DNA of 64,000 nt from Streptosporangiaceae bacterium (GTDB lineage: Bacteria; Actinomycetota; Actinomycetes; Streptosporangiales; Streptosporangiaceae): NCBI GenBank assembly GCA_030039155.1, contig JASHQL010000156.1:162-64161 (forward strand). The letters are read 5' to 3'. Within the stretch, counting starts at the first letter, position 1. Every line of letters begins with the position of its first letter. Both the position numbers and the translations under genes were made by a program. The notes beneath the pieces were generated by a model. The model was not told the origin of the DNA. It saw only the letters and a program-made list of their open reading frames with translations, and made no database searches. Below are positions 27,433 to 46,717 of the stretch, one piece after another.

Positions 27433-27906
27433 ATGACCGAGCCGAAGTTCTTCACCAAGGAATGGGCCGACGCGGTCAGGGAGGCGCTGATCGCCGGGCC
27501 GCCAGAGCAGGCGCGCGTCGGCAAGCTGCAGGAGTACTGGGACTTCTTCGATCTGGTCAAGAGCCTGTATCCGGCGTCCTGGGCGCTTGGCTGCCGTGAC
27601 CTGCCAGCCGAGCTCGGCGACGGCCCGGCGTACCTGCTCGTGCAGTGGGGCGGCGGCACCGTCAGCAACGCCGCGATCATCGGGCCAGACGAGCCGGTCG
27701 AGGCCACGTTCGTGCTGAACATGGACTACGCGGACTGGAAGGCGCTGCATGAGGGCTATGACGCGCAGCGAACCGTGATGTACCGCAAGATCCTGCTCGA
27801 GGACGGGCCGCTGCTCGAGTTCTTCAAGCCGATCTACTTCTTCGTCGAGTGCCTCGCGGTCATTGGCGCGCTGCCTGCGCAGTACCCGGAGCTGACCAAG
27901 TCGTAA
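27433..27906 (+). CDS. SCP2 sterol/lipid-binding-domain protein
   Basis: Starts 4 nt after the previous stop. FFTKEWADAVREAL and YRKILLEDG-type SCP2 pattern. 157 aa. Confidence 0.6.
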   Translation: MTEPKFFTKEWADAVREALIAGPPEQARVGKLQEYWDFFDLVKSLYPASWALGCRDLPAELGDGPAYLLVQWGGGTVSNAAIIGPDEPVEATFVLNMDYADWKALHEGYDAQRTVMYRKILLEDGPLLEFFKPIYFFVECLAVIGALPAQYPELTKS

Positions 27907-29843
27907 CCGAAGCGGGCTGCAAGCGACTCAGCCTCGGTCCTTGCGCCGTCGATCGTCTGCCCTAGCGCCAGCGAAGGGCGATGCCGTACCGCCGAGCACT
28001 CCAGGCAGAAAGCTTCAAGCAACTCCTCCGGCACCGATGCGGGAATGACAGGCGTGTAGTCGGTCACGAGTGACAGCATCCGGCCGTCGATTGGCAGCAG
28101 CCAGCCCAGGCTCACCAACCTGTCAATGACTGGCAGCGCTTCGTGCTCGGACAACCCGCTGGTCAGGTCGGCCAGCCTTACGCCGCGGTCTGCGCGCTGC
28201 AGGATCTCCAGCGTGCAGCCGTCGATGCGGTCCCTGGCGATAGTTGCGACTGGTCGTGTATCGAAAACCCAGCAGCCGTCCGGTTTCTCAACCCGTAGCA
28301 GAGCGCTTGACTCGTAGCTCGCTTGCCAGTCGTCCACTAGCTCGCGCAGGACCCGCCCGTACTCTTCCGGATCCTTGCCCCCGTCGGGCACAAAGTCAAA
28401 ATAATAGACCAGGTCATTCAGATCATCCATTGGATGACCATAAATGTACTGATATGGCTCCGGTGGCCAGCGCCTGGCCACGCCTAGCGCTCGTCCATTG
28501 AAGTCAAGCGGGCTAAAGCGATCGAGTCGCACGCGGCATGCAAATGGCGGCCGCAGATGATGGAGCATCGGAAGTATCTTGAACATCTCGAGATAGTCTT
28601 GCATGTCTTCTCGAGGGAAGCCGTAGAGCAGGTTCCACATCGGGCGGATGCCCAGTTCTTCACACCATTTCAACAGGCGGATGTTGTGGTAAGCGTCAAC
28701 GCCCTTCCGCATCAGTTTCAGGATCGGCGTGCTGAGGCTCTCGATGCCTGGCTGAACGCACCGTATCCCGGCACTATGCATCAGTTCGACCTGTTCACGG
28801 GTCACTTTCGACTTGATCTCATAGAAGATCTTGGCGGGAAGCTTGCGCTCGGCGAGCGCAGGCAGCAGCGTCCGGAAATAGTGGAAGTCCAGAATGTTGT
28901 CGACCGCATTCACGTTGTTGACGCCGTATTGCAGGGCTGACTCAATATCGTGGATAACGCGCTCCGGGCTCTTGCTGCGGAAGAACAAACTGTCGCCGTT
29001 AAGGCCGCAGAATGTGCAGTGTTGCTGGGCTCCATACCAGCATCCGCGACTGGTCTCGATCGGGATCTCGATGTCACCGCCGGACAGCGGCAGGCGTGCC
29101 TGCTCAATTTGCCTGAACCAGTCCTCGTACCGAGGCGTCGGCAGCGCGTCGAGGTCCTGCCACCTGGCAGGTTTACGGGCTTTCGGCTGAGCGCTGGACA
29201 GCATTCCTGGTATCTGTGTCTCGGGACTGCCGGCGTCGTCAAGGTGCTGGGCCAGGTTCAGGAGCGCGGTTTCGCCTTCGCCGGGGCAGACGTAGTCCAC
29301 GGCGGGGAAGAGTCGCAGCACAGACTCGCCCATGACGTCCTCACATGACGCGCCACCGAGCACAATCTTGGACCGGCCGCCCAGCATCTTGAGGCGCTCC
29401 GCCATCGCCAGGCTTGGCGCGAGGTTGAAGGTCGTGTTGAATCCGACGAGATCGAAGTCGCCTTTGGCGATGCCGAGGCTTTCGTCGCGCACCAGATCGC
29501 GTGCCTCTGCGGCCAGATCTGGGAGTATGTTGATGAGCCATTCCGGTACATTCTTTGCCAGCAGGTGACGTTCGATGACCAGACGCATCGCCGGTTCGAT
29601 TTCGTCGCCATGGCCGGGCCACATGGCCGAGAAAACCATCTCGCCGTATAGCGTCTCTGCAGGCATCTGCTCGGAAGCCATGCGGTAGAGATTCAGTCCG
29701 ATGCGGCGAGCGTACTCGACGTTGAGGTACCTGATCTCGGCAGTGTGGCCGTTCGCCTCCAGGACGCCCCGCAGCAGGCTCAGAGCGATTGATGGTCGGC
29801 TGACTGACTGGAATGGCATTTGCACCAAGACTACGTTGGCCAT
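27834..29843 (-). CDS. B12-binding-domain radical SAM enzyme, RiPP-maturation (C-methyltransferase-like) type, paralog 1
   Basis: Trimmed to ATG at 29843 (MANVVLVQMPFQ). Rossmann-like N-terminal half (KIVLGGASCE). Cluster motif GCWYGAQQHCTFCGLNG. About two-thirds identical by eye to 41517..43475. Confidence 0.85.
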   Translation of the reverse strand: MANVVLVQMPFQSVSRPSIALSLLRGVLEANGHTAEIRYLNVEYARRIGLNLYRMASEQMPAETLYGEMVFSAMWPGHGDEIEPAMRLVIERHLLAKNVPEWLINILPDLAAEARDLVRDESLGIAKGDFDLVGFNTTFNLAPSLAMAERLKMLGGRSKIVLGGASCEDVMGESVLRLFPAVDYVCPGEGETALLNLAQHLDDAGSPETQIPGMLSSAQPKARKPARWQDLDALPTPRYEDWFRQIEQARLPLSGGDIEIPIETSRGCWYGAQQHCTFCGLNGDSLFFRSKSPERVIHDIESALQYGVNNVNAVDNILDFHYFRTLLPALAERKLPAKIFYEIKSKVTREQVELMHSAGIRCVQPGIESLSTPILKLMRKGVDAYHNIRLLKWCEELGIRPMWNLLYGFPREDMQDYLEMFKILPMLHHLRPPFACRVRLDRFSPLDFNGRALGVARRWPPEPYQYIYGHPMDDLNDLVYYFDFVPDGGKDPEEYGRVLRELVDDWQASYESSALLRVEKPDGCWVFDTRPVATIARDRIDGCTLEILQRADRGVRLADLTSGLSEHEALPVIDRLVSLGWLLPIDGRMLSLVTDYTPVIPASVPEELLEAFCLECSAVRHRPSLALGQTIDGARTEAESLAARFGYDLVSSGYCAGSAPMTARHSTKK

Positions 29844-29892
29844 CGATTTTCGCCTTTCCTGCCGCGGGAAGCTTGCTGCTCGGGAGCCCGGC

Positions 29893-31245
29893 TCATGCTG
29901 CCCGCTGCCAGCCGATGCCGTCAGCGGACGGGACCAGGCTGCCCGGCACGACGGCCACAGCGCCCTGGCTGGCCGCTGTGCGGGCAGCGTAGGAATGCTC
30001 GGAGTCACCTGGAACGAGTGCGGGATCGTCAGAAGCTGCACCACCGACGAGTTCTATGAACGCGACAATGTCCGCCAGAGCCGAGCCGGTGAGCCGCTTC
30101 GCCGCCCAGAAGTACGAATGCTCGCTGAGACTCTCGATATAGAACGCTCTGAGGAACTGATAGAAAAACCTGTATTCTGTTCGGTACCTGCGTTCGAACT
30201 CGGCCAGTGCCTGCTCTTCCGGGATCGCGCCGGCCAGGCTGCTGTTGATGGCCCGTGCGGCCAGCAGCGCCCCATAAGTGGCCAGGTGGACACCGGAGGA
30301 GAGAACCGGGTCAACGAAGCACGCGGTGTCGCCGACTAGGACCATGCCAGGCCGGTGAAAGCGATCGTGGCAATACGAGTAGTCGCGCCGGATGCGGACG
30401 TGCCCGTAGGGTCCGTCGGTGACGCGGCTTGCGGTCGACAGATATTGCCTGATCAGCGGGCAGGACGCGATGAGCCCGGCGAGGGCGCCAGCTGGATCTC
30501 CCTGGATGCTGGGCGCGAGGTCACCGGGGATCACCGCGCCGACGCTGGTCAGGGTCGCACTGAGCGGGATGTACCAGAACCAGCCGTTGTCGAATGCTAC
30601 CGACAGGATGTTGCCGGAGTGCGGCTCGGGCAGCCGCTTCCCGTTCTCGAAGTAGCCGAACACGGCGATGTTGCGGAAGAAGTCCGAATAGTGACGCTGA
30701 CCTGCCATCCGGCGATAGATCCGGCTGCGGTGCCCGCAGGCGTCGGCGACGAACCTGGCCAGGGCGGTACGCACCCGGCCGTCATCGTCGGTGTACCTGA
30801 TGCCTTGCACCCGACTCTGCCCGACGACGATGTCAATCGCTGAACATCCTTCATGCACGTCAACCCCGGCGCGCCGGGCGTTGTTGAGGAGGATGGCATC
30901 GAACCGCATCCGTTCGACCTGGTAGGCGTAGGAATTGCCGTGCGAGAAGGCGGGCAGGTCGCGAAATTCGAACGTCCATGGCTCAGGGTTGCTGCCCCAT
31001 CTGAATGTTCCGCCATGCTTCACGATGAAACGGCCGGCTTCAAGTTCGTCGCTAACACCGAGGAGGCGGCATATCCCATGGACAGTGGCCGGCAGCAAAG
31101 ACTCACCGATCTGATATCGCGGGAAGTGCTCCTTTTCCAGCAGCAGAACCCGCTGACCTCGCATGGCCACCAGTGCGGCCAGAGTCGCGCCGGCCGGCCC
31201 GCCGCCAGCCACGATCAGGTCATACCGCTCAGAGGCCAGCGTCAC
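29893..31245 (-). CDS. flavin-dependent halogenase
   Basis: RBS AGGGAG, then GTG at 31245. YDLIVAGGGPAG FAD motif, FPRYQIGESLLP, and the halogenase signature GWFWYIPL (WxWxIP). Confidence 0.8.
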   Translation of the reverse strand: MTLASERYDLIVAGGGPAGATLAALVAMRGQRVLLLEKEHFPRYQIGESLLPATVHGICRLLGVSDELEAGRFIVKHGGTFRWGSNPEPWTFEFRDLPAFSHGNSYAYQVERMRFDAILLNNARRAGVDVHEGCSAIDIVVGQSRVQGIRYTDDDGRVRTALARFVADACGHRSRIYRRMAGQRHYSDFFRNIAVFGYFENGKRLPEPHSGNILSVAFDNGWFWYIPLSATLTSVGAVIPGDLAPSIQGDPAGALAGLIASCPLIRQYLSTASRVTDGPYGHVRIRRDYSYCHDRFHRPGMVLVGDTACFVDPVLSSGVHLATYGALLAARAINSSLAGAIPEEQALAEFERRYRTEYRFFYQFLRAFYIESLSEHSYFWAAKRLTGSALADIVAFIELVGGAASDDPALVPGDSEHSYAARTAASQGAVAVVPGSLVPSADGIGWQRAA

Positions 31246-33772
31246 TGATGGCTCCCTCGATGTTGAGCGCACGGCAGCGCAGCGTACGCAGGATGTCGTC
31301 TTGGCCCTCGGTGAGCAGGCGGCGCAGGGCGGCGGGCGGATCGGTGGTGGCGATGTAGGCATCGGTCGCGTCCACTGTCTGCTGGCTGAATGGGCAGGCC
31401 GGATACAGGCCGGCGACGAAGTCTTGCGCCATTGCGGTTGGCCACGTGCGCCAGACCACATCGATCGCACTGAAATAGTCGTCCAGGTAGGGCTCGGTCA
31501 GCGCACGCTGGTCGGGGTAGGCAAACCCGGCCAGCAGCGCACGGAACAGCGCAAGCGGAAGCTCGCCGCTGGTTAGCTTCCGCCACGCGGCCCGCTTGGC
31601 ATCAGCTGCAGGTATCGCTGCGTGACACGTTGCGGCATGCCGTTCACCGGCATCGGTGGCATCGCGGCTCCGCTCGCGGTCGATCTGGCTGGCCCCGGCC
31701 TTACCCCTGCTGACCAACCTGGTCAGCAGCGTCCAGCGCAGGTCGGTGTCGACGAGCAGACCGCTCAGCGCAGCCGAGCCGTCCAGCAGGCCGGCTAGGA
31801 ACGCCAGGTCATCGTCGCGGGTGGCAACCTCGGCAAGCGCTCGCAGGTACGTGAGCTGAGTGTCTGATCCGGCGGGTGCCTGGCTGAGGAGCCCGCGCAG
31901 CGTCGTGGCAATCAGCTCGAGCCCGGTCTCCTGCCAGGCCGGGTCGGCGTAGCGCCTCACCGCCACGCCGGCCTGGCCGAGCAGAGCTTGCGCCATGCTC
32001 ACGTCGGGGACAGTGCCGACGCCTGAGGCGACGAGCTTGACATATTCGCGCGCTGCCATTTCTCCGTCTCGGCACATGTCCCAGGCGGCAGACCAGCACA
32101 ACGCGGCCGGGAGCGAGTCGGCGAAGCCGCCGATGTTGCCGAGAAGCGTGCGCAGCGACCGCTGGTCGAGCCTGATCTTGGCGTAGCTCAGGTCGTCGTC
32201 GTTCACCAGCAGCAGGTCTGGGCAGGATTCCCCGATCATCGCTGGCAACATCGTCAGTTCGCCGGCGACATCGACCTCGACTCGCCCGGTACGAGCCAGG
32301 GCACCGCATGACCGGTTGTACAGCCCGATGGCTATGCGGTGCGACCGCAGGACTGGGTGCTGTCGCGGAGCTTCCTGCAGGACGGCGAATGAGGTGAAGC
32401 GGCCGGCCTCATCGAGGGTGAACGATGGCCGCAAGGTATTGACCCCAGCAGTTTCCAGCCACTGCCGGGACCAGGAAGTTAGCTCACGGCCTGAGGCTGC
32501 CTCAAGTGCCGAGAGCAGGTCAGCCAGCGTCGCGTTTCCCCATGCGTGCGCGGCAAAGTACCTCCGCACGCCGACCAGGAAGTTCTCCCGACCCACCCAG
32601 GCGACAAGCTGTTTGAGCACAGCCGCGCCCTTGGCGTAGGTGATGCCGTCGAAATTGACCTCGACAGCTGCGATGTCCGGGATGTCGGCTGAGATCGGGT
32701 GCGTGGTGGCCAACTGGTCCTGGCGATACGCCCAGGCCTTGTAGAGCTGGGCGAACGTCGTCCATCCGGACGACCAGCGAGTAGCCTCCACCTCGGCAAG
32801 CGTGCCGGCCCAGGTCGCGAACGACTCATTCAGCCAGAGATCATCCCACCAGCGCATGGTGACCAGGTCGCCGAACCACATGTGCGCCATCTCATGCAGG
32901 ATGGTCTCCGCCCGGCCCTGGCGGACGAAGTCGGTGACCCTAGACCGGAAGAGGAACTGCTCGGTGAACGTCACGGCGCCAGGGTTTTCCATGGCGCCCT
33001 CTTTGAATTCCGGCACGAATAGCTGATCATACTTTCCGAACGGATACTTGGTCCCGAAGATATTGTGAAAGAAACCAAAGCCTTGCTTGGTGATCGTGAA
33101 AATCTCGTCCGGATCAAGATACTCGGCCAGCGACTGGCGGCAGAAAATGCCCAGCGGAATGCCGTCGCACTCGTCCTTTGCCAGGTGATAGGGACCCGCG
33201 GCGACCGCCGTGATGTAAGTTGGCATCGGCGGGGTAGCCGGGAACCTCCAGCAGATCCCGTCCTGAACTGGTTCGGTCAAGTCCGGCGCCATGTTAGAGA
33301 CCACGGTCCAGTCCGCTGGCGCGGTGACTGTGAAGGCGAAGCTGGCCTTCAGGTCGGGTTGATCGAAGCACGCATAGACCCGGTGCGCGTCGAACGCCTC
33401 AAGGTCGGAGTACAGGTACGCCCGACCGTCAGCCGGATCGATAAACCTGTGCAGTCCAGCGCCCGTGCGCGAATACTCGCATTCAGCGTCGACCGCGAGG
33501 ACATTCTCTGCGCACAGACCGGTCAGCGCTATGCGGTGGCCGTCGAATGCTGCCGGGTCCACCGGCTCGCCGTTCAGCGTGATGCGGTGAACGCCGGCGG
33601 CCGTCAAGTTCACGAAGGTCGTGGCATCAGGCGCGCGGCTGCTGAACCTGATCAGGCTTGACGATGCGAATGTGCCGGCCGCGCTGGTCAGGTCGAGGTC
33701 AACCTGGTACGAGTCGACCCGGACAAGCGCGGCACGCTGCCGCGCTTCCTGCAGGGTCAGGTCAGCTGACAT
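31229..33772 (-). CDS. pepN: M1-family aminopeptidase N
   Basis: GAMEN exopeptidase motif (EGAMENPG) and HEMAHMWFGDLVTMRWWDDLWLNESFA (HExxH-x18-E). 847 aa. Confidence 0.9.
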   Translation of the reverse strand: MSADLTLQEARQRAALVRVDSYQVDLDLTSAAGTFASSSLIRFSSRAPDATTFVNLTAAGVHRITLNGEPVDPAAFDGHRIALTGLCAENVLAVDAECEYSRTGAGLHRFIDPADGRAYLYSDLEAFDAHRVYACFDQPDLKASFAFTVTAPADWTVVSNMAPDLTEPVQDGICWRFPATPPMPTYITAVAAGPYHLAKDECDGIPLGIFCRQSLAEYLDPDEIFTITKQGFGFFHNIFGTKYPFGKYDQLFVPEFKEGAMENPGAVTFTEQFLFRSRVTDFVRQGRAETILHEMAHMWFGDLVTMRWWDDLWLNESFATWAGTLAEVEATRWSSGWTTFAQLYKAWAYRQDQLATTHPISADIPDIAAVEVNFDGITYAKGAAVLKQLVAWVGRENFLVGVRRYFAAHAWGNATLADLLSALEAASGRELTSWSRQWLETAGVNTLRPSFTLDEAGRFTSFAVLQEAPRQHPVLRSHRIAIGLYNRSCGALARTGRVEVDVAGELTMLPAMIGESCPDLLLVNDDDLSYAKIRLDQRSLRTLLGNIGGFADSLPAALCWSAAWDMCRDGEMAAREYVKLVASGVGTVPDVSMAQALLGQAGVAVRRYADPAWQETGLELIATTLRGLLSQAPAGSDTQLTYLRALAEVATRDDDLAFLAGLLDGSAALSGLLVDTDLRWTLLTRLVSRGKAGASQIDRERSRDATDAGERHAATCHAAIPAADAKRAAWRKLTSGELPLALFRALLAGFAYPDQRALTEPYLDDYFSAIDVVWRTWPTAMAQDFVAGLYPACPFSQQTVDATDAYIATTDPPAALRRLLTEGQDDILRTLRCRALNIEGAISDAGL

Positions 33773-33789: not shown

Positions 33790-34434
33790 CTAGCTGGCGA
33801 GCAGCATTCGCACCGATCCCAGCAGCCTGAGCCCAGCCTGACGGCGCTCGCCTTCGGCCGCGCCCAGCAGTCGTGCCACCTCAATGAGGTCGCAGAGTTC
33901 GCTGGTGGCCGAGGTAAGCAGCGACCGCGCGGCCCGGCTCCGCTGCACGATCCGCAACGCCGCGGCGGACTGCGTCGCGAACAGCGATAGCAACTCCAGT
34001 TGGGTCAGCTGAGACCGGCTGAGCTGCTGAGAGTCAAGAACCTCGAGGACGCCGATGGGTTCCTCATCGCAGATCACCGGGCTCGCCATCAGCGTGGCCG
34101 GCACGTAGTTCGTGGACTCCGCGATCTCTTTGGCGAACCGGTCATCGCCGTCCAGGTTGTCGACGATGACTGGCTGGCCTGACTCGAGCACCCACCCGGC
34201 GATGCCCCTGCTGGCCGGAAACCGCGTCCCGACGAGGAAGTCTGCTCCTTCGCCGGCCACGGCCTCGAACACCAGGTCGCCACTCGCGGTGTCGAGCAGG
34301 AAGATCGAACTGGCCGCTGCGTCGAAGATGGCACGCGCGGTGAGCACCACTGAATCCAGGAGCATGCGCTGATCTTCTTCAGAATCGAGCACAGCCAGCG
34401 ACATTGCCGCAGCCAGGGCGTTGTTATTGGTCAT
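33790..34434 (-). CDS. GAF-domain protein with short helical C-terminal extension
   Basis: ATG at 34434 overlaps the S8 stop (ATGA). The GAF-like core runs from SSIFLLDTASGDLVFEAVAG through RGIAGWVLESGQPVIV to PIGVLEVLD. No ANTAR or HTH seen. Confidence 0.75.
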   Translation of the reverse strand: MTNNNALAAAMSLAVLDSEEDQRMLLDSVVLTARAIFDAAASSIFLLDTASGDLVFEAVAGEGADFLVGTRFPASRGIAGWVLESGQPVIVDNLDGDDRFAKEIAESTNYVPATLMASPVICDEEPIGVLEVLDSQQLSRSQLTQLELLSLFATQSAAALRIVQRSRAARSLLTSATSELCDLIEVARLLGAAEGERRQAGLRLLGSVRMLLAS

Positions 34435-35267
34435 CGGGCACCTCGCACATTCGCGGCCGTGAGGTACAGCATGTTCTTGACCTGGAAGGCGGTCAGCTCG
34501 GGATTCTTGCTCAGAATCAATGCGCAATAGCCGGCGATGTGCGGGGTGGCAAAGCTGTTTCCGGTGCAGCGGCGCGTGCCGCCGCCAAGCCATGCCACTT
34601 CCACGTCGACTCCGTGCGCGAAGAACTCAACAGGCGGATGCGGGTTATAGAAGAACTGGCCACTATCTCCGGTGTCATGGCTGCCGACGGAAATGACCGA
34701 GGAGAAGCGCCAGGGATAACTCTCGACTCTGAGGTTGTGCGCCGAGGCGACAAGCGCGGTCTTGCGGAAGTAAGCGTCGTCGGCCAGCACGCGAAGGGCA
34801 TCGGCAAATTTCTGCCTCGTCGTGGAGAGGCTGAGGTTGACGACGTCGAACCGCTGCGCTACGGCCCACGCCAAGCCAGCCATGAGGGCGTCGCCGGTGC
34901 CAGAAAGGCCATGACTCAGTACTCGGACGCTATGAATCTCGCAGTCCGGCGCTACCGAGCGCACGACGCCGGCGCACGCCGTACCGTGACCGCTCAGGTC
35001 GTCTGCTCCGACCGGCACAACTGCCCACCCGCCGTCGGCCTGCCGCTCGACGGCATGCGACCCCTGAACCGGCCCGACTCGTGGATGGCCGCCTTCTACG
35101 CCGCTGTCGACGATGCAGACGCGGACGCCACTTCCGGTAGCGTCGCCCCACGCCTCATGCGCAGTCACCGGAGATGGCCATCTGGTGGCCTCGGCCAGGT
35201 TTGCGCGATCGCGGCCGACGATGTTCCAGGTGAGGGGCGGCCTGGCCAGCCGCGTGGTGTCCATCAC
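34431..35267 (-). CDS. S8-family (subtilisin-like) serine peptidase without signal peptide
   Basis: Catalytic triad motifs VDSGV, HGTACAG and GNSFATPH. GTG at 35267 or ATG at 35264. The start overlaps the upstream stop. Confidence 0.85.
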   Translation of the reverse strand: MMDTTRLARPPLTWNIVGRDRANLAEATRWPSPVTAHEAWGDATGSGVRVCIVDSGVEGGHPRVGPVQGSHAVERQADGGWAVVPVGADDLSGHGTACAGVVRSVAPDCEIHSVRVLSHGLSGTGDALMAGLAWAVAQRFDVVNLSLSTTRQKFADALRVLADDAYFRKTALVASAHNLRVESYPWRFSSVISVGSHDTGDSGQFFYNPHPPVEFFAHGVDVEVAWLGGGTRRCTGNSFATPHIAGYCALILSKNPELTAFQVKNMLYLTAANVRGAR

Positions 35268-39406: not shown

Positions 39407-40042
39407 CTACTCGTCGGGCGCAGTCCTCATTATGATCTCCAGCCGACTATGCAGGCCTAACTTATCGAGGATGCTTTCGATATGGGACTTGACTGTTGAC
39501 CGCGCGATGGAAAGCGCATCAGCGATCTGCGGGTTCGTCATCCCGAGCCGCACCAGCTCAAAGACCTCCCGCTCCCGTCTGGTGAGCTTCCTGCCTGCGT
39601 TGTCCCGGTCGCTGTCAATCTCATCGAGGACGGCGGCGTGGGCGAGTACCTCGTCGACGCCATCGCGCGGAAGCGGCATGTAGCCCGCCATCATCAGTGA
39701 GGCCATGGCGGCCAGGTGACTGGACACCACCTTGCTTCTGATGATGACGCACAGTCCGCTGCGGATGAGTTTCGACGCCCAGTCGCTGGTGCTGGCAACC
39801 AGCACCAGCACTGGCACCGCCACGGCCTTGTCGGCGAGACTGAGCCGAAACAGCGAACCCGCAGTCTCCGCGGTAATCGTCTCCAGGCAGATGACATACA
39901 GGTCCGGTCTTGGCAAATCTGACAGTGGATCGATATTGCGGTCGGCAGCAACGACCTGGACCGCAACGTCGCTGACGCTGGCAAGGGCGTTCTGAACGCC
40001 GCTGAGAACGAACTCATCGTCCCCAGCGACGACTATGCGCAT
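39407..40042 (-). CDS. LuxR-family regulator with atypical receiver-like N-terminal domain
   Basis: RBS GGAGGAGG upstream of ATG at 40042. C-terminal HTH LTRREREVFELVRLGMTNPQIADALSIARSTVKSHIESILDKLG. N-terminus MRIVVAGDDEF is receiver-like. Confidence 0.85.
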   Translation of the reverse strand: MRIVVAGDDEFVLSGVQNALASVSDVAVQVVAADRNIDPLSDLPRPDLYVICLETITAETAGSLFRLSLADKAVAVPVLVLVASTSDWASKLIRSGLCVIIRSKVVSSHLAAMASLMMAGYMPLPRDGVDEVLAHAAVLDEIDSDRDNAGRKLTRREREVFELVRLGMTNPQIADALSIARSTVKSHIESILDKLGLHSRLEIIMRTAPDE

Positions 40043-40201: not shown

Positions 40202-41464
40202 TTAGGTAACAGCTTCCGGCTGCCCGCGCTGCTTCTTCTGCTCCGATCTCAACGTGCTGAGCTTGCGGGAGGCCAGCACGGCTGAGGCCATGGCTACTGC
40301 GACCGCGGCCACCCCGGCGATGACGAACGTTGGCCGCGGACCGAATGCCTGTCCTATCGTGCCGCCAAGCACCAGGGCCACGACCATGCCGACCTGAACA
40401 AGGCCATTGAGCGACGCGATTGCCTTGCCCCGGTCCGCCTCGGGAGTGCGGCCGATCAGCACCGCACCGAAAGTGGCGTTGAGCGCGGTATTCGCCAGGC
40501 CGATGAGGAGGCCGAAGCAGAGGTAGACCGCGAAGTCCGGGGACAGGCCTGCGCCGATGCAGCCGAGCCCGACGAGCGCGAATCCAGCGAAGGTGATGGT
40601 CACTTGCCACGTGACCGCCTTGGCCCTGGCCGCGACCACCGAGCCAGCCACTCCGCCGACCGCCGCGGCGATCTCCGATAGTCCGTACAGGGACGCAGAG
40701 GTATGCAGGGACACGCGGACGAGGAAGACATCGACGACGTTCACGCCGCCGATCACCACGATCGTCGCGGTGAGTGCCCACATCATCGGCCAGACTATTG
40801 CGTCCTGCCTGATCGCGGAGAAGCCAGCAAACACCCTGGTGAAGGCTCTGGCGGCAGACGGCCGAGTGATGCCTTCCCGGTGTCCGGAGCGACGGGTTTG
40901 CACCAGCATCGCAGCGCAGGTCAGCAGCGCAAACGTAGCGGTGTCGACGAGCACGGCGGTGCGCATGCCAGTCAGTCCGAACAGCAGCCCGCCCAGGCCG
41001 GCACCGGCTGGGGCACCGACCGCGGCAAGACCGGACTGCAAGGCCACGAAGCTGCCGATCTTGTCTTCGCCCACGACTCTGGGCATCAGCGCCGTCCAGG
41101 TGGGCACAGTGAACGCCTGGCCAACCTGGATGGCGAAGACGAGCAGGAATACCGCGACCAGGTCGGAGGTGAAGGCAAGCGCGCAGCAGGCTAGCGTCTG
41201 CGCCGCCGTCGCGATGGCGAGCACGGTCCTGGAGTCGTAGGTGTCCGCAACATGGCCTGCGATACCTATCAGCAGCACCAGTGGCAGTGACTCCACGCCC
41301 AGCATCACTGCCACTGGCCAGATACCGATATGGGCACGCTCGAGGTACAGCAGCAACACGATGGCCAGCACGCTGTCCCCGAGCAGCGAGACGGCACGCG
41401 CCGGTACCACGATCCGGACATCGCGGATGCGCCAGAGCTGTCGTGGCGGGGCCTGCTCGGTCAC
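40202..41464 (-). CDS. MFS transporter
   Basis: GTG at 41464, 9 nt after RBS GGAAGGAG. About 12 hydrophobic helices, for example LLGDSVLAIVLLLYL and GVAAVAVAMASAVLA. Confidence 0.8.
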   Translation of the reverse strand: MTEQAPPRQLWRIRDVRIVVPARAVSLLGDSVLAIVLLLYLERAHIGIWPVAVMLGVESLPLVLLIGIAGHVADTYDSRTVLAIATAAQTLACCALAFTSDLVAVFLLVFAIQVGQAFTVPTWTALMPRVVGEDKIGSFVALQSGLAAVGAPAGAGLGGLLFGLTGMRTAVLVDTATFALLTCAAMLVQTRRSGHREGITRPSAARAFTRVFAGFSAIRQDAIVWPMMWALTATIVVIGGVNVVDVFLVRVSLHTSASLYGLSEIAAAVGGVAGSVVAARAKAVTWQVTITFAGFALVGLGCIGAGLSPDFAVYLCFGLLIGLANTALNATFGAVLIGRTPEADRGKAIASLNGLVQVGMVVALVLGGTIGQAFGPRPTFVIAGVAAVAVAMASAVLASRKLSTLRSEQKKQRGQPEAVT

Positions 41465-41516: not shown

Positions 41517-43475
41517 TCAGGGCACCGGCAGGTAGTCCGGCCGCCGTGCCAGCAGTGACCGGGCATCCGCCAGGTCAGCCGGTGAACCGGGCAGTACGCT
41601 CGAGATCGCGCGATGACGGATGGTGGCTAGCTCTAGGCAGTAGTCCTCCAGCAAGCCTGGGGGCAGCGACTTGGGGACCACGGGCGTGTAGTTGACGATC
41701 AGCGAGAGGATCCGGTCATCCACCTCGAGCAGCCAACCGATGTCCAGCAGCCCGGCTAGGGCTTTGACGCCAGCATCCCCTGCCCCGTCAAGCAGGTCGG
41801 CACGGCGCACACCGCGGTCGGACCGCTGGACGAGGTCAAGCTCGAGCGGCTCGAGGCAGCGCCGTGCCACCAGCGCGCCTGGCCTGGTATCAAACACCTG
41901 GCATCCGTCTGGCGTCTCGGCGCGCAGCAGTGCGCTGCCCGGATACTCGTCGCGCCACTCCTGCACGATCGAGTTCAGCACTACCCCATACTCTTCAGGG
42001 TTGTTGCCGTCGTCCGGTTCGAACTCAAAGTAGTAGGCCAGGTCGTCCAGTGCTGAGTCCGGCAGGCCGTAGACGAGCCGGTAAGCCCTGGACGGCCTGC
42101 GGTTGGCGACCCCCAGGGCCTTCCCGTCAAAGTGCAGCGGGCTGAACCGGTCCAGGCGCACCCGCCCGCCGGCTTCCGGCGGCTGCAGGTGGAAGAGTCG
42201 AGGCAGCATGCCGAACATTTGCAGGTAATCCTGCTTGCGCTCACGCGGGAACCCGTACAGCAGGTTCCAGGTCGCGGCAATGCCCAGCTCCTCTCCCCAT
42301 TTGAGCAGCCGGATGTTGTGGTACGCCTGCACACCCTTGCGCATGAGCATGAGCACCGGCGTGCTCATGCTCTCAATCCCCGGCTGAACGCTGCGGATGC
42401 CCGCCCGGCGCATGAGCACCAGCTGATCCCTGGTGACCTTGGACTTGATCTCATAGAACAGGTGCGCAGAGTGCTCGCGTTTGGCCAGTTCCGGTAGCAC
42501 CGTGCGGAAGTAACGGAAATCAAGGATGTTGTCCACCGCGTGTACGTTCTGGATACCGTACGAAAGCGCGGCGTGGATCTCCCGCAGCACATTGTCCGGG
42601 CTCTTGCTGCGGAACTGGAGGTTCTCTCCGTTCAGCCCGCAGAAGGTGCAATGCTGCTGCGCCCCGTACCAGCAGCCCCGGCTGGTCTCGATCGGGATCA
42701 GCAGCTCTGACTCCGCTATGCCGAGGTCGGCGCGGGCGAGCTGGCCAAGCCAGTCTTCAAACCGCGGCTGCGGCAACGCGTCCAGGTTCTGTGGCGGAAC
42801 AGGCCTGGCAACGCTCGGATGCGCGCGGGACAGCATCCCGGGGATGGCCGTGGCGTCGTCGGCGTGCCGTGCGATGGCGTTCGCCAGATTGAGCAGCGCC
42901 TGCTCGCCTTCGCCTGGGCAGACGTAGTCCACCCAGGGAAAGAGTCGCATCACGGCCGCGCCCATGCCCGCTTCGCAGGAGGCGCCGCCGAGCACAACCG
43001 GCACGCTCGGGTTGGCCGCCTTGAAATAGCGGGCCATCGACAGACTAGGCGCCAAGTTGAAGGTGGTGCTGAAGCATACGAGGTCGAAGCGGCGGTCGAT
43101 GATCTTCCGGCTCTCGGTACTGACGAGGTCGCGTGCCTCCGCCACCAGCGCAGGCAGGAGCTGCCCGATCCACGGGGGAACCCGCTTCCAGGCCGAATAG
43201 CGCGCTAGCTCCTCAGGGCTAGGCTCCCGGTCCTGCCCATCAGGATCCAGCCAGACCGGGGCGAACACGAGGTCGCTGAGGAGAATGTCGGCAGGCAGCC
43301 GCTCAGAGATCGTGGTGTAGAGGTTGACGCCGATGCGGCGGGCGAACTTCATGTTCAGGTAGCTGATTTCGACTATGTGGCCGTGCTGCTCGAGCACCGC
43401 TCGCAGCAGGCTCGGGCCGAGCGCGGGCCTGCGGACAGCCTGGAACGGCATCTGCGGGAACAAGATCCTGGTCAT
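41517..43475 (-). CDS. B12-binding-domain radical SAM enzyme, RiPP-maturation type, paralog 2
   Basis: MTRILFPQMPFQ, VVLGGASCE and GCWYGAQQHCTFCGLNG. Collinear similarity to 27834..29843 along the whole length. Confidence 0.85.
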   Translation of the reverse strand: MTRILFPQMPFQAVRRPALGPSLLRAVLEQHGHIVEISYLNMKFARRIGVNLYTTISERLPADILLSDLVFAPVWLDPDGQDREPSPEELARYSAWKRVPPWIGQLLPALVAEARDLVSTESRKIIDRRFDLVCFSTTFNLAPSLSMARYFKAANPSVPVVLGGASCEAGMGAAVMRLFPWVDYVCPGEGEQALLNLANAIARHADDATAIPGMLSRAHPSVARPVPPQNLDALPQPRFEDWLGQLARADLGIAESELLIPIETSRGCWYGAQQHCTFCGLNGENLQFRSKSPDNVLREIHAALSYGIQNVHAVDNILDFRYFRTVLPELAKREHSAHLFYEIKSKVTRDQLVLMRRAGIRSVQPGIESMSTPVLMLMRKGVQAYHNIRLLKWGEELGIAATWNLLYGFPRERKQDYLQMFGMLPRLFHLQPPEAGGRVRLDRFSPLHFDGKALGVANRRPSRAYRLVYGLPDSALDDLAYYFEFEPDDGNNPEEYGVVLNSIVQEWRDEYPGSALLRAETPDGCQVFDTRPGALVARRCLEPLELDLVQRSDRGVRRADLLDGAGDAGVKALAGLLDIGWLLEVDDRILSLIVNYTPVVPKSLPPGLLEDYCLELATIRHRAISSVLPGSPADLADARSLLARRPDYLPVP

Positions 43476-43495
43476 CGCTCCATCGCTGCTGCACG

Positions 43496-45268
43496 TCAGA
43501 CCGCGTCCGCGAGCTGTGGCACGCGGATGCGTCGCACTGTCTTCTTCTTCGTGTCGGCTGAGTAGAGCCAGTGACCGCGGCGGGCGGCCTCGAGATCGGC
43601 AAGCGGCCTGGTATCGAGGCCGGTGCAGTCAAGCCAGCTGAGCAACGGCGTCTGCGGATCGAGCAGCACGCTGACACCAAGCCAGTGCTCGAATTCCAGG
43701 ACCTGCAGCAGGACCTCGGTTCGTTCCTGGCCAAGGCCGAGGTGGCCGAGGAACTGCCGGAGCTCCGCATACACGCGCGATGCGCCAGTGGCCGGGTCGA
43801 ATGCCTGGGTAGCCGCAGACGGCGTGCCGCGCTCCTCGTGCCGCACCCAGCGCACGAACTCGGTGCCGAGCTCCGGGCCGAGCAGATCCCAGAGCAATCG
43901 CAGAGTGTTTCCGAACGGTCCCAGGTGCAGGATGAACCAGTAGATGTATCGGTAATGCGCGCGCGAGGTGTACTCGTTGGGAAAGTAGTAGAAGCTGCTG
44001 AAGATTCTTGGGTACCGGCGGATCTGCTCTTCCTCCCATGGCGTGACGGTCCACATGACCGCTACATCATTCAGGCGGCCGTCGAACTGCAACTGGTCTT
44101 CGTACTCGGCGGTCAGCTCGGTGCCGGCTAGCGGCGACAGTGAGTGAACTTGAACGTTGCGCATGGCCGGGCGCCACGAGCGAAATTCGAAGTAGAGATT
44201 CAGCGTGTCGGCAAGGTCGTCCGGGGTCTCGGCTGGGAAGCCGATGATCAGCGAGGCAGTTACGCCGATCTGGCGCTCCCACGCGGACCGCACCGCGATC
44301 TTGATGTCCGCTACCTTCAGGCCCTTCTTGATGGCCTGCTGCATGTTTTCCGAGCCCGACTCGACGCCGAAGAAGATCCGGCGGCATCCGGCTTCGTACA
44401 TCAGGTCAAGCAGGCTGTCGTCGATCCGGTCGGTGCGGGCACTGCACGCCCAGTCAAGGTGGAGATCTTCGCTGATCAGCCGTTTGCAGAGGTCCGCTAC
44501 CAGCCTGCGGTTCGTCGTGAACATGTCGTGCACGAACTCGAAATGGCTGCTGGCATGCTGCTCTCGCACCTTCTGCAGCTCGGCGATGATCATGTCGGCG
44601 CTGCGGAAGCGGAACCGGCGCTGGAAGAAAACCTTCGTCGAGCAGAACGTGCACTTATACGGGCAGCCGCGGCCGATCTCGACCGAGACTCCGCGGGCCC
44701 CCCCGTCAATTGGCGGTGGTGTGAGCGTGTAGTCGATGGGCCGGATGTCGTCGGCATCGATCAGCTGCGCTGGCTGGAGCTGCAGCGGGAGCAGCGTCAG
44801 GCGCGAAGCGCCTGGCGGGATGTAGATAAGGCCGGGGCGCACTGAGCGCTGACCGGTCGTGATCGCTTCCCAGAGGAACGTCACGACACTTTCCGCCTCG
44901 CCGATGACGATTCCGTCGATGAATTCATAGGCGGCCATGAGTTCACCGGGCACGCTGCTGGCCTGGGGCCCGCCGAGCACGACAGGCAAGCGGGGATGAA
45001 GTTCCTTGATCCGTTTCGCCAACGTCAGTGTCCGGGGCAGCGTGCCGCAGATCGTGCCAAGGCCAACCAGCCCAACATCCGGGCCGATGTGCAGGCCCGC
45101 AAGGAACTCTTCGAGATCGGTGTTGTCGGATGGCAGATAGTGAATGTCGACAGTCAGTCCGTGGTCTTCTTTGAGAATCGTGCCGACGACCATGACGCCC
45201 AGCGGCATCTCAGCCTGAAACTCGTCAGCTGTGCTGTTGACGAGTATCGCTCTGCTGCTGGGCGTCAC
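43496..45268 (-). CDS. class-B (B12-binding) radical SAM enzyme, distinct subfamily
   Basis: GTG at 45268, 4 nt after the upstream stop. B12-domain pattern PVVLGGPQAS. Canonical cluster GRGCPYKCTFCS. Confidence 0.85.
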   Translation of the reverse strand: MTPSSRAILVNSTADEFQAEMPLGVMVVGTILKEDHGLTVDIHYLPSDNTDLEEFLAGLHIGPDVGLVGLGTICGTLPRTLTLAKRIKELHPRLPVVLGGPQASSVPGELMAAYEFIDGIVIGEAESVVTFLWEAITTGQRSVRPGLIYIPPGASRLTLLPLQLQPAQLIDADDIRPIDYTLTPPPIDGGARGVSVEIGRGCPYKCTFCSTKVFFQRRFRFRSADMIIAELQKVREQHASSHFEFVHDMFTTNRRLVADLCKRLISEDLHLDWACSARTDRIDDSLLDLMYEAGCRRIFFGVESGSENMQQAIKKGLKVADIKIAVRSAWERQIGVTASLIIGFPAETPDDLADTLNLYFEFRSWRPAMRNVQVHSLSPLAGTELTAEYEDQLQFDGRLNDVAVMWTVTPWEEEQIRRYPRIFSSFYYFPNEYTSRAHYRYIYWFILHLGPFGNTLRLLWDLLGPELGTEFVRWVRHEERGTPSAATQAFDPATGASRVYAELRQFLGHLGLGQERTEVLLQVLEFEHWLGVSVLLDPQTPLLSWLDCTGLDTRPLADLEAARRGHWLYSADTKKKTVRRIRVPQLADAV

Positions 45269-45272
45269 CTCG

Positions 45273-46241
45273 TCAGACCTCGCCGTAGTACAGGGCCCGT
45301 AGCGTGTCGACCTGATCTCGGATTCTCTCGGCCGCGGCGTTCACCTTCGACTTGTTCTCCTCCTGCAGGAGCAGATGGCATGAACCGCACGGAGACCTCG
45401 CCAGAACCTCGTCATCAGGGTCGTCCCTGATGACGCCCGATTGGACGGCAAGCTGCCGCGCGCCGATGGTCCTGATCGTCTGCAACACACGACTATTACT
45501 GCGGGCATCCACCGCGTCCTTCAGCGGCGTGTTCTTCACATGCCCGAACCTGAGGTCATGGGGCCCGCGGACATACATGCTCTCGCCGCAGCAGCCGAAG
45601 ATCCCCCCGGTGCTGCGGATCATGAGCGTGGAGGCAGCAAGGCAAGGTTCGCGCTCCGGGAACATGGGGAAGACGCCGGGCTTCAGCTTGGTCGCGCGGC
45701 CAACCCGCATGACGCCGGAGAAGTGCACCCGCATGCGCTCGTCGTCGGTACCGAGGCCAAGTTCCTTGAGGATCTCCTCGAATTCCTCGCCTTCGGTATA
45801 GGTATATCGGATTACCGCGTCGATGCCGAGTTCCCTGGCCTCCTGCAGTGCGCGGCCTATGGCTCGCCTTGGAACGGCGGTTGCGTGATAGACATCGGCG
45901 CTGATGCCGAGTTTGCGCACGTCCAGGATCGAGTGCAGCACCTGCTGGCGTTCGGTGGAATCAACGGACCACGTGCCGTTGGTCGTCACCGAGTAGGCTA
46001 GGCCGAGGTCGCGGACGAGGCCGATCGCGTAGTAGAGCAGGTCTCGGACGTAGAAGACCTCGCCGCCGGTGAACCCTACTTCCGCCAGCGGATCGATCTC
46101 CTTGACCTGTTCAAGGACCGCCTTCAAGTATCCGCGGTCCAGCTTCGTCGTCACCTTTGGTGATGAGTTTGTCGAGCAATGCTGACACGCGAGATCACAA
46201 GACTCGGTCAGCTGGACCCCGACGCGGAGATTCTCGAACAT
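45273..46241 (-). CDS. radical SAM enzyme with C-terminal auxiliary-cluster-like Cys motifs (twitch/SPASM-like)
   Basis: ATG at 46241. CDLACQHC (CxxxCxxC) and GFTGGE. C-terminal Cys motifs EREPC, GIFGCCGE and SPCGSCH. Confidence 0.8.
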   Translation of the reverse strand: MFENLRVGVQLTESCDLACQHCSTNSSPKVTTKLDRGYLKAVLEQVKEIDPLAEVGFTGGEVFYVRDLLYYAIGLVRDLGLAYSVTTNGTWSVDSTERQQVLHSILDVRKLGISADVYHATAVPRRAIGRALQEARELGIDAVIRYTYTEGEEFEEILKELGLGTDDERMRVHFSGVMRVGRATKLKPGVFPMFPEREPCLAASTLMIRSTGGIFGCCGESMYVRGPHDLRFGHVKNTPLKDAVDARSNSRVLQTIRTIGARQLAVQSGVIRDDPDDEVLARSPCGSCHLLLQEENKSKVNAAAERIRDQVDTLRALYYGEV

Positions 46242-46322: not shown

Positions 46323-46553
46323 TTAGCTGACGTATACCGCCCCCACGCGGATCGCGGACTGGTCCATCATGTGCGCGGTGACGAGGTCCGATTCCTCGAC
46401 TTCGCTGATGTTGAGATCTCGCAGCATTGCCTTCTCGTGGTCGGTCAGTTCGAGTTCGCCCAGCGCCGCCGTCGAGTCAGCGCGGAACGCGTCGCGGAAG
46501 CTCTCGTCGGTCAGCAGCTGATTGATGACCTGCTTCACTACCTGGGATGACAC
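46323..46553 (-). CDS. candidate RiPP precursor peptide (76 aa) with LigA/NHLP-clan-like helical leader
   Basis: RBS GAGGAG 7 nt upstream of GTG at 46553. VSSQVVKQVINQLLTDESFRDAFRADSTAALGELELTDHEKAMLRDLNISEVEESDLVTAHMMDQSAIRVGAVYVS. It is the first gene of the collinear cluster, 81 nt upstream of a radical SAM gene. Confidence 0.65.
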   Translation of the reverse strand: MSSQVVKQVINQLLTDESFRDAFRADSTAALGELELTDHEKAMLRDLNISEVEESDLVTAHMMDQSAIRVGAVYVS

Positions 46554-46618
46554 AGCGGCACTCCTCGCTAGACTGGGCCGCTTGGACGAGTGAGCAGAAT
46601 TGCGGCCGCCTTCGCCGC

Positions 46619-46648
46619 AACGTACGTCGCCGTAACCGGGCAATTCAA
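46619..46648 (-). promoter_or_regulatory. candidate promoter for the precursor operon
   Basis: On the minus strand: TTGAAT (46648-46643), an 18-nt spacer, then TACGTT (46624-46619, TAnnnT type). About 65 nt upstream of the GTG. Confidence 0.25.
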
Positions 46649-46681
46649 TCGGTCAACTGGCCGGTTGCCCTGGATGGGCCA

Positions 46682-46717
46682 CCGCCAGATGTCCGCAAGT
46701 CCTAGGCCATCTGGCGG
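46682..46717. promoter_or_regulatory. inverted repeat (10-bp perfect arms, 16-nt spacer): terminator of the upstream gene or an operator
   Basis: ccgccagatg ... catctggcgg. Lies between the TOPRIM-gene stop (46794) and the precursor promoter region. Confidence 0.3.

Follow-up and report, generated by a model that had tools for sequence, protein, structure and literature searches.

A candidate ribosomal peptide cluster from Streptosporangiaceae with an oxidase-fused, precursor-like peptide and an NHLP-clan precursor

What does a bacterium make with a small open reading frame (ORF), four radical SAM proteins, an oxidase, two peptidases, a halogenase and a nucleotide cyclase, all encoded in a row on one strand? 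The question is posed by a stretch of 64,000 nucleotides from a Streptosporangiaceae bacterium (NCBI GenBank assembly GCA_030039155.1, contig JASHQL010000156.1, positions 162 to 64,161), referred to here as the window, which carries between positions 27834 and 46553 an island of thirteen co-directional genes on its minus strand (Table 1). The answer developed here begins with two small peptides, a predicted precursor of 76 aa encoded by the first gene and a precursor-like peptide fused to the C-terminus of a heme-oxygenase-like (HO-like) dimetal oxidase (HDO). It continues with the place of that oxidase in a gene neighborhood that NCBI names the 'aroma-sacti cluster'. With somewhat more confidence than doubt, we read the island as a single integrated cluster for a peptide that is synthesized ribosomally and modified post-translationally (RiPP), an elaborated member of the aroma-sacti group that uses a precursor of the NHLP clan.

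Two candidate precursors and their common junction

The 76-aa protein (precursor 1) is translated from a GTG codon with a GAGGAG Shine-Dalgarno sequence 7 nt upstream. It exceeds the model NF038399, 'Os1348 family NHLP clan protein' (40.6 bits, cutoff 40), comes close to TIGR04509, 'NHLP-related RiPP peptide' (30.1 bits, cutoff 34), and gives weak matches to PF14407 and LigA among the Pfam and NCBIfam profiles; the classical NHLP model TIGR03793 yields no match at E <= 0.01. Of the homologous precursors, five were tested, and each matches NF038399 as well as TIGR04509; NCBI itself names one homolog 'Os1348 family NHLP clan'. Such proteins are rare and uniform: a search of 5.8 billion proteins returns ten relatives, nine of them exactly 76 aa long, and their alignment ends in a conserved A-I/L-R/K-V/I-G-A/S-V-Y-V/I-S/T with a single conserved tyrosine, Tyr74 in the window, three residues from the end. 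Wherever a homologous locus includes this region, the 76-aa ORF lies immediately upstream of the gene for the epimerase-like radical SAM protein, rSAM1. AlphaFold2 (AF2) predicts, with moderate confidence only, helices over residues 2-65 and disorder over 65-76. The top match in the Protein Data Bank (PDB), by sequence and by fold, is Os1348 (6lk7), both matches being weak and the fold matches non-significant. Os1348, a helical protein of 85 aa, is encoded in an antibiotic locus of Pseudomonas, where it is the presumed precursor (PMC7726476). The core of precursor 1 is predicted to be MMDQSAIRVGAVYVS (aa 62-76, nt 46326-46370), with the boundary placed at aa 61/62 because a V-x-A-H junction is common to the aroma-sacti peptides described below.

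The second peptide is part of the oxidase. In an alignment of the HO-like protein with 24 relatives the dimetal ligands H80, E84, H87, E141, D173 and H176 are invariant, and its AF2 model (pLDDT 88) finds as Foldseek matches 3dde (a DUF structure), CADD, UndA, AetD and BesC. Behind the enzyme domain follow a linker, half of an aroma-sacti leader (aa ~245-271, …LSDGEAAVLADIEQFQAGRADVVAH) and, as the core, the ten residues SGDVAGGLFL (aa 272-281, nt 38367-38396). This C-terminal extension is confined to close relatives, where it ends in …LSxxEAxLLxxIE…DVVAH-SGDIAGGLFL, and is missing from distant ones. Aligned with a profile of 16 free aroma-sacti peptides, the tail is matched through to its C-terminus (probability 97%, E = 7e-11); its match to the corresponding NCBI model, NF045560, is weak (15 bits, E = 0.02, cutoff 30), just the C-terminal half of that domain being present. 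The tail can also be aligned with the 76-aa precursors (segment …LTDHEKAMLRDLN…DLVTAH-MMD…; hhalign P = 4.5e-4 over 30 columns), with a score of 22.1 against 8.8 ± 1.7 for column shuffles, none of 300 shuffles reaching the observed value. At the junction itself, …DVVAH-SGDVAGGLFL, the tail has V-x-A-H in common with precursor 1, and a search of the entire window for this signature finds only these two peptides. As far as sequence comparison can do so, these alignments show that the HO-like protein carries a second, fused, precursor-like peptide (precursor 2). This tail may serve as substrate, as signal or as a mimic of a leader.

The same kind of peptide exists in free form. In Streptosporangium becharense (locus L067) an HO-like protein devoid of a tail is followed by an rSAM1 homolog (98% probability) and then by a free ORF of 62 aa ending in …SLSEAEVALLVSIHEQLRENAPEVEAH-IVGGLLF. 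The HDO of the sister strain Streptosporangiaceae NEAU-GS5 (L001:14949-15935) has a low-complexity insertion of ~60 aa, rich in Ala, Gln and Pro, within its enzyme domain.

The aroma-sacti neighborhood and the recurrence of the island

A metagenome scan with the HO-like profile returned more than 408 loci, 80 of which were examined. In these 80 the HO-like protein, a cyclase/STAND protein, an S8 peptidase and a GAF protein recur in that order, often after one or two distant YydG-like radical SAM proteins. Among the 63 loci with enough downstream DNA, 42 encode a peptide of the family, either free (38) or fused (4). The free peptides, about 65 aa long, score 57-74 bits against NF045560, 'aroma-sacti cluster domain-containing protein', whose cutoff is 30. 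A cultured example is found on the linear plasmid NZ_CP108138.1 of Streptomyces sp. NBC_00184, where OG778_RS33810 to RS33785 are overlapping genes for a radical SAM protein, an iron-containing redox enzyme (PF14518), the peptide, a cyclase, an S8 peptidase and a GAF protein. The window follows the same plan: the genes from 38335 to 33790 encode cyclase/AAA/TPR, S8 and GAF proteins in the order of loci L064, L067, L074, L106 and L148, next to a PF14518 enzyme and with a YydG-like partner in rSAM1. The HO-like, cyclase/STAND, S8 and GAF genes are thus the conserved core of NCBI's uncharacterized 'aroma-sacti cluster' and not miscellaneous additions to the island. The window appears to hold a complete aroma-sacti system in which the peptide is fused to the HDO and to which a second, NHLP-clan precursor and its maturases have been added. 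The alternation between free and fused peptides shows that HDO and peptide belong together. Aroma-sacti loci are known from curated HMM names only; the literature search, which covered aroma-sacti, TIGR03975, Franean1_4349 and HDOs in RiPPs, found no description of this system, most subscription journals lying outside its coverage, and a 2026 review of HDOs cites only one bioinformatic lead for such enzymes in ribosomal peptides.

Some of these loci also show variation among the peptides themselves. Tandem aroma-sacti peptides with near-identical leaders and different cores occur in L082:4160-6107 (VADQSTVGGLVW, SQPPADTTGGVVW) and in L083:2320-2983 (VEGVATGVIVW, VEEPTGVIVW), the pattern to be expected of RiPP precursor diversification. 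Two further loci bridge the precursor types: L077:12159-12377 and L079:12331-12552 encode peptides with an NHLP-like N-terminus (NF038399, 29 bits), a …PAVEAH junction and an acidic core of just a few residues, ATPEYE or ATPENYE, and both loci encode a free aroma-sacti peptide (…ETSAH-VAMTIGGLFF) as well.

The larger gene set, together with the 76-aa precursor, recurs in at least four other loci. NEAU-GS5 (L001) has a near-identical set arranged in two divergent operons. The JGI contig L061 keeps precursor, rSAM1, B12 enzyme, MFS, LuxR, HO-like protein, cyclase, S8, GAF and M1 in the order of the window, and the metagenome-assembled genome (MAG) GCA_030155785 has the set spread over two contigs with overlapping ends (L063, L065). 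Two loci are minimal: L059, with precursor, rSAM1, both types of B12 enzyme and an M16-like peptidase, and L003, from a Rhodobacteraceae MAG, with precursor, rSAM1 and an enzyme of the B12a type. Since L003:2931-8304 and L059:1-9540 lie among relaxase, resolvase, recombinase and transposase genes, the core cassette appears to be mobile. HDOs with a fused tail accompany separate NHLP-like precursors (the window, NEAU-GS5, L061, L065 and the divergent L069), and tail-less HDOs accompany free aroma-sacti peptides. L069 encodes two tandem NHLP-like peptides of 68 aa (373-801, minus strand; VEGH-FDLTIY and VEGH-FGLTVY; NF038399, 34-36 bits) beside a B12-binding radical SAM protein and seems to be a further elaboration of this system.

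This distribution bears directly on a reading in which two independent systems sit side by side, each with its own product and no shared steps: a proteusin-like operon made up of precursor, rSAM1, B12 enzymes, MFS and perhaps M1, halogenase and B12c, and an aroma-sacti module made up of the HDO with its peptide, cyclase, S8 and GAF. Either half can be found by itself, L003 and L059 having just the precursor, rSAM1 and B12 enzymes, and L064, L067, L074 and L148 having HDO, peptide, cyclase, S8 and GAF with neither a 76-aa precursor nor a TIGR03975 enzyme; furthermore, the 76-aa precursor resembles the free aroma-sacti peptides weakly (P = 0.012). Nevertheless, the two halves stay linked despite rearrangement in at least four independent loci and in L069, the state of the HDO tail goes with the type of separate precursor, and the V-x-A-H junction common to both precursors is lost where S8 is absent. 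Moreover, the aroma-sacti module of the window has no radical SAM protein of its own, the homolog of the canonical one being rSAM1, and strand, coupling and GC content at third codon positions (GC3) are uniform over the whole island. Two separate systems seem unlikely in this light, and one integrated cluster remains the reading that we prefer.

The island is also set off as a unit within its own genome. Thirteen consecutive, tightly coupled genes had been described in a first-pass annotation of this DNA, and that description holds up: each ORF and its translation are present at the coordinates given, the domain assignments all return in Pfam/NCBIfam profile searches, and the five junctions quoted can be read in the sequence, namely gaps of 4 nt between the stop of rSAM1 and the GTG start of B12a and of 20 nt between the stop of B12a and the ATG start of B12b, a TAG stop of the STAND gene that overlaps the GTG start of S8, an ATGA overlap of S8 and GAF, and a 17-nt overlap of M1 and the halogenase. 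The same annotation had singled out the 76-aa ORF as a precursor candidate, which its conserved length, position and C-terminus in homologous loci bear out, and had noted the lack of a nitrile-hydratase-type leader, which is wrong at the level of the clan given the NF038399 score. A motif check found the catalytic motifs intact in all enzymes. GC3 is 0.74-0.83 in island genes and 0.88-0.95 on either side of them, bulk GC falls to 0.61-0.68 from 0.72, and the flanks encode ordinary metabolism (enoyl-CoA hydratase, CoA transferase, aldo-keto reductase). The low-GC3 composition, the ordinary metabolic flanks and the recurrence elsewhere make the gene block more than a product of chance; it is a horizontally acquired RiPP gene cluster. 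An identical sequence is present in a contig of the MAG GCA_030048905.1. An Rfam scan of the window gave zero matches, hence no cobalamin or SAM riboswitch, and no tRNA was found in the window; a scan for promoters and terminators gave no more matches than shuffled sequence and is uninformative.

Several features of the sister loci deserve mention in their own right. In MAG GCA_030155785.1 an additional copy of the 76-aa precursor and a further rSAM1 paralog lie between HDO and cyclase (overlap of L065:10922-11115 and L063:1-276); this precursor copy reads as frameshifted and could be an assembly error or a pseudogene. An agmatinase-like ureohydrolase gene (PF00491; NF002564, 138 bits) stands between M1 and halogenase in L001:246-1187 and L063:8395-9450 and is found at the end of L059 as well; it is missing from the window, which carries the additional B12c in its place. 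A peptide arginase of the OspR type, which would turn Arg69 into ornithine, was considered and rejected, as the sister genes belong to PF00491 and are agmatinase-like (138 bits), OspR-type enzymes belong to PF12640, and the window lacks a gene of either description. L003 also encodes a divergent radical SAM/SPASM maturase of GDL/Nif11 type, its 510 bits falling short of the TIGR03913 cutoff. In L069 (8520-9797, plus strand) a cytochrome P450 gene lies directly upstream of the fused-tail HDO, and L068 also has an O-methyltransferase. The notion that L068-L070 are HDO-cyclase-S8-GAF modules with no other maturase was dropped, given the P450, the B12-binding radical SAM protein and the two NHLP-like peptides upstream in L069.

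The enzymes of the island and what they may do

rSAM1 is a distant homolog of the peptide epimerase YydG, also known as EpeE. Its family profile aligns with PDB 8ai6 (YydG) at E = 4.9e-33 over residues 5-297. Beyond CxxxCxxC, the cysteines C200, C217, C218, C285 and C288 are invariant in the rSAM1 family, and YydG is matched at the CC pair, at the PC motif and at the CGxC motif alike, C218 falling on Cys223 of EpeE. In EpeE this residue donates the hydrogen atom in the epimerization of Val and Ile (PMC13012085). The best of the 25 top-scoring families of rSAM1 is YydG (TIGR04078), at 82 bits below the equivalog level of 300; the PoyD-type model TIGR04517 is absent from these 25, and the SPASM domain PF13186 gives no match. 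The canonical aroma-sacti radical SAM protein of L148 is likewise a relative (probability 99%, E = 3e-18), as is that of L067 (98%). The S. becharense homolog (L067:10663-11877) carries an Ala/Ser/Pro-rich insertion of ~70 aa before its PC…CC motif.

The family of rSAM1 is small. About 19 relatives were found by indexed search. Among 185,579 species genomes it occurs in two, the other 49 matches being generic radical SAM N-termini, and among 1.84 billion representatives some 12 clusters exceed 260 bits and belong to a broader set of 212 YydG-like clusters (E <= 1e-30). When metagenomes were scanned with the rSAM1 profile, 113 pattern matches came up, none of them confirmed, and a plasmid collection held no family member, matching only radical SAM proteins of 24-25% identity.

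Three cobalamin-dependent radical SAM enzymes accompany it. B12a is most similar to ApyD, which beta-methylates a peptidyl Tyr (PMC10635010). It has orthologs in L059 and L003, and the core peptide of L003 has no Tyr, which makes Tyr an unlikely obligatory target of B12a. The start of B12a is ambiguous, an alternative lying at 45208; the public call on the identical sequence begins 20 codons later, giving a protein of 570 aa and a gap of 64 nt. B12b and B12c are 57% identical to each other. B12b orthologs are found in NEAU-GS5, L061, L059 and L065, and a second, divergently placed TIGR03975 copy exists in L065 too. Both enzymes have an unusual Cx7Cx2C cluster motif (CWYGAQQHCTFC) in place of CxxxCxxC, and their C-terminal region is winged-helix-like (…LEILQRADRGVRLADL…LVSLGWLL…) and could be a putative leader-binding domain similar to the RiPP recognition element.

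Two peptidases and a halogenase are also encoded. The S8 protein comes nearest to the QhpE leader protease and mycosin families, without reaching either cutoff. Loci with S8 have V-x-A-H, and the junction is degenerate in L059 (RVSH), where an M16-like peptidase takes the place of S8, and in L003 (GIAR), where S8 is absent. Since the junction is common to both precursor types and degenerates in loci without S8, the enzyme is the likely leader protease, cutting after His, with M1 trimming afterwards. M1 follows GAF in NEAU-GS5, L061 and L063. The halogenase aligns with the tyrosyl chlorinase CndH (PDB 3E1T) at E = 2e-150 and is retained in both NEAU-GS5 and L063. The sole locus with a Tyr-less core, L003, has no halogenase within 10 kb.

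Table 1. Genes of the island in order of transcription, with window coordinates and supporting matches
Gene	Coordinates	Strand	Assignment	Evidence
Precursor 1	46323..46553	-	76-aa candidate precursor	NHLP-clan helical leader aa 1-61 (ends D-L-V-T-A-H) + predicted 15-aa core
rSAM1	45273..46241	-	Twitch-type radical SAM, YydG/EpeE homolog	TIGR04078 82 bits, cutoff 300
B12a	43496..45268	-	Class-B cobalamin radical SAM, ApyD-like	NF050148 ApyD 252 bits, cutoff 750; PF02310 + PF04055; CxxxCxxC at residue 202
B12b	41517..43475	-	TIGR03975 RiPP-maturation radical SAM C-methyltransferase	531 bits, cutoff 282; Cx7Cx2C at residue 268
MFS	40202..41464	-	MFS exporter	PF07690 101 bits, PF05977; adjoins B12 enzyme in sister loci
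LuxR	39407..40042	-	LuxR-family (GerE HTH) regulator, receiver-like N-terminus	PF00196 63 bits; between MFS and HO-like genes in sister loci
HDO	38364..39209	-	HDO oxidase (domain ~aa 1-220) fused to precursor 2	PF14518, 39.9 bits vs 28.9
Cyclase/STAND	35267..38335	-	Class III nucleotide cyclase + AAA_16 (STAND) ATPase + TPR	PF00211 79 bits, PF13191 63 bits, TPR_12
S8	34431..35267	-	Subtilisin-like peptidase, predicted leader protease	PF00082 93 bits; triad D54/H94/S238
GAF	33790..34434	-	Stand-alone GAF protein, putative cyclic-nucleotide sensor	PF01590 61 bits; translationally coupled to S8
M1	31229..33772	-	Aminopeptidase N paralog, predicted N-terminal trimmer	TIGR02412 1016 bits; GAMEN, HEXXH-X18-E
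Halogenase	29893..31245	-	Flavin-dependent halogenase, CndH-like	PF04820 204 bits; GxGxxG, WxWxIP, Lys76
B12c	27834..29843	-	Second TIGR03975 C-methyltransferase	550 bits, cutoff 282; B12b paralog

The remaining genes are regulatory in appearance. The cyclase/STAND protein has the metal-binding and transition-state motifs of cyclases and matches TIGR03903, 'TOMM kinase/cyclase', at 150 bits, below cutoff; in relatives its gene always follows the HDO or its peptide, and GAF holds the same place in all of them. These genes invite a reading in which the peptide on the HDO tail is a signal: S8 would release SGDVAGGLFL, the TPR part of the cyclase/STAND protein would sense it, GAF would read the resulting cAMP or cGMP, and LuxR would activate the RiPP genes. 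The genes for peptide, cyclase/TPR, S8 and GAF invariably lie side by side in translational coupling, the catalytic residues of the cyclase are intact, LuxR or SARP regulators lie nearby, and the cores are short, hydrophobic and C-terminal, as are known peptide pheromones; with TIGR03903, moreover, curators had linked cyclase-STAND proteins to RiPP loci before. Nevertheless, the peptide is nearly always accompanied by an HDO with intact metal ligands and usually by a radical SAM protein, which suggests a heavily modified product, and the tandem copies with varied cores in L082 and L083 look like product diversification. A pheromone-specific export or import system is not evident either, and the literature searched holds no experimental precedent, so that the signal reading strikes us as rather improbable.

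It is very improbable that the island is not a peptide pathway, with the 76-aa protein a small structural or regulatory one and the radical SAM/B12 enzymes acting on a lipid, a cofactor or another small molecule: B12a is partly similar to BchE, HpnJ, PhpK and AprD4-type enzymes, Os1348 as namesake of the leader family was detected in cells as a stable folded dimer, and one metagenomic study took antiSMASH matches to TIGR03975 as likely false positives, but the best matches of all four radical SAM proteins are peptide enzymes (the closest characterized ones being YydG/EpeE, ApyD and TIGR03975), every locus keeps the length, the position and the C-terminal sequence of the small ORF, which is syntenic with two peptidases and a CndH-like halogenase, and a leader-plus-core peptide that alternates between free and fused forms is typical RiPP behavior.

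Proposed pathway and relation to known classes

If the island is indeed one integrated RiPP cluster, its genes suggest an order of events. The folded leader of the 76-aa precursor would recruit the maturases. rSAM1 would then abstract a C-alpha hydrogen, with Cys218 re-donating a hydrogen atom, and selected Val, Ile and Ala residues in MMDQSAIRVGAVYVS would take on the D-configuration. The three cobalamin enzymes, one ApyD-like and two of TIGR03975, may methylate side-chain carbons that are not activated, at sites of up to three kinds, and the CndH-like halogenase may chlorinate Tyr74. The HDO would carry out an O2-dependent oxidation of its own tail (SGDVAGGLFL), of the free precursor, or of both. 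S8 would cut after V-x-A-H, M1 would trim until blocked by a D- or methylated residue, and the MFS protein would export the product. LuxR, cyclase/STAND/TPR and GAF could form a cyclic-nucleotide regulatory relay. Within this scheme, the HDO may, tentatively, be a peptide-modifying enzyme with a product of the free ~65-aa gene or its own C-terminus as substrate, a borosin-like self-modifying fusion built on oxidase chemistry and coupled to cyclic-nucleotide signaling through cyclase/STAND-TPR and GAF.

A number of points weigh against this reading and should temper it. Every chemical step, that is epimerization, C-methylation, Tyr chlorination and HDO oxidation, is assigned from homology. As the HDO-cyclase-S8-GAF and precursor-rSAM-B12 groups each occur alone, functional integration is argued for by repeated co-location only. 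The precursor exceeds NF038399 by just 0.6 bits and does not reach TIGR03793. In rSAM1 the position of EpeE Asp210 is not conserved, and taken together with a score so far below the YydG cutoff (82 against 300 bits) this makes a different radical chemistry possible. AF2 leaves the fused core outside the active site of the HDO and disordered (pLDDT <50). M1 meets the equivalog cutoff of housekeeping PepN, so that its dedicated role hangs on synteny. Finally, the co-variation of Tyr with the halogenase and of the junction with S8 is seen in very few loci.

How does the island compare with RiPPs that have been described? The first-pass annotation had called it a RiPP-type cluster, an assessment now reinforced by the conserved precursor and by the peptide-enzyme homology of the radical SAM proteins, and had found the combination impossible to place. 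The latter stands insofar as no experimentally described RiPP class matches; it falls short in that an NHLP-clan leader, an epimerase-like radical SAM protein and B12 C-methyltransferases make the cluster proteusin-like in logic. Like the proteusins (polytheonamides, landornamide, aeronamides), it has a large leader, predicted to be folded and placed by a narrow margin in the NHLP clan, a predicted radical SAM epimerization and several TIGR03975 C-methyltransferases, as well as a flavin halogenase such as sponge proteusins (srp) also have. It differs in the Os1348-subfamily leader, in an epimerase-like enzyme of YydG/EpeE and not PoyD type, and in a core of just ~15 aa, and its HDO::precursor fusion, cyclase/STAND, GAF, S8 and M1 lie outside the described proteusin pathways. 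With the epipeptides (YydF/YydG = EpeX/EpeE of Bacillus subtilis) it has in common a full-length rSAM1 homolog with the radical SAM cluster, auxiliary-cluster cysteines and H-donor Cys; the Val and Ile that EpeE epimerizes are also the residue types that dominate the core here. However, the precursor is unrelated to YydF, S8, M1 and MFS replace protease and ABC genes of the YydH/I/J type, and enzymes for methylation, halogenation and oxidation have been added.

The island is also like the aroma-sacti locus of NBC_00184, with which it has six components and the order from HDO to GAF in common and whose radical SAM protein is a homolog of rSAM1 (probability 99%), bearing in mind that aroma-sacti itself is defined by curated HMMs alone. 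The peptide of the window forms part of the HDO and keeps just the C-terminal half of its domain, the radical SAM gene has moved to the head of the operon, and an NHLP-clan precursor, three B12 radical SAM enzymes, a halogenase, M1, MFS and LuxR have been added. The best place for the cluster is in the aroma-sacti neighborhood, as an elaborated member. Other resemblances are partial. ApyD, from the aminopyruvatide pathway, is the best family of B12a and targets a Tyr near the C-terminus, and the core here also has a conserved Tyr; B12a nonetheless scores 252 against 750 bits, and neither an MNIO nor a P450 is present in the window cluster. In borosins the core is either fused to the enzyme's C-terminus (OphMA type) or encoded by a separate small gene (SonA/SonM type), and SonA is among the weak structural matches of the 76-aa leader; the fused domain here is a PF14518/HDO oxidase instead of an alpha-N-methyltransferase, and the AF2 tail is undocked. 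The OS3 cluster of Pseudomonas sp. Os17 has the leader-domain family NF038399 in common with the island, its Os1348 being a small helical presumed precursor needed for antibiotic activity, but its partners are a GNAT protein, a peptidase and a SagB-type dehydrogenase, with no radical SAM, B12, halogenase or HDO gene. Two assignments were rejected: a sactipeptide, as the NCBI name implies, given that neither MMDQSAIRVGAVYVS nor SGDVAGGLFL contains Cys and rSAM1 has no SPASM domain, and a bottromycin, given that none of the 13 proteins is a YcaO, the leader is N-terminal and not a follower, and the aminopeptidase is M1 and not M17.

Should the HDO prove to be such a peptide-modifying enzyme, it would be the first functionally defined one in ribosomal peptide maturation, and its action on a peptide, once shown, would open new enzyme chemistry. 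'Aroma-sacti' would then be a new RiPP class widespread in soil actinomycetes, with over 408 loci in metagenomes and cultured members in Streptomyces and Streptosporangium, and the window would hold its hybrid with proteusin-type chemistry. A YydG-type epimerase, three B12 C-methyltransferases and a Tyr halogenase acting on a 15-residue core predict a compact, protease-resistant, heavily alkylated D/L-peptide. The variant in the window would be an attractive target for genome mining and engineering, perhaps an instance in which proteusin-like chemistry has evolved on another epimerase scaffold, and the common V-x-A-H junction offers a directly testable boundary between leader and core.

The borders of the island have features of their own. 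No integrase or tRNA gene is seen at either of them. Directly upstream (46794-47543, minus strand) lies a gene for an OLD-like TOPRIM protein (PF20469, 35 bits) with a host-like GC3 of 0.91. At the other border (26341-27429, plus strand) a gene of 362 codons, weakly matching the ribonucleotide reductase small chain (ferritin-like diiron; PF00268, 43 bits), combines a GC3 of 0.93 with a GC content at second codon positions of just 0.36 and probably lies outside the island.

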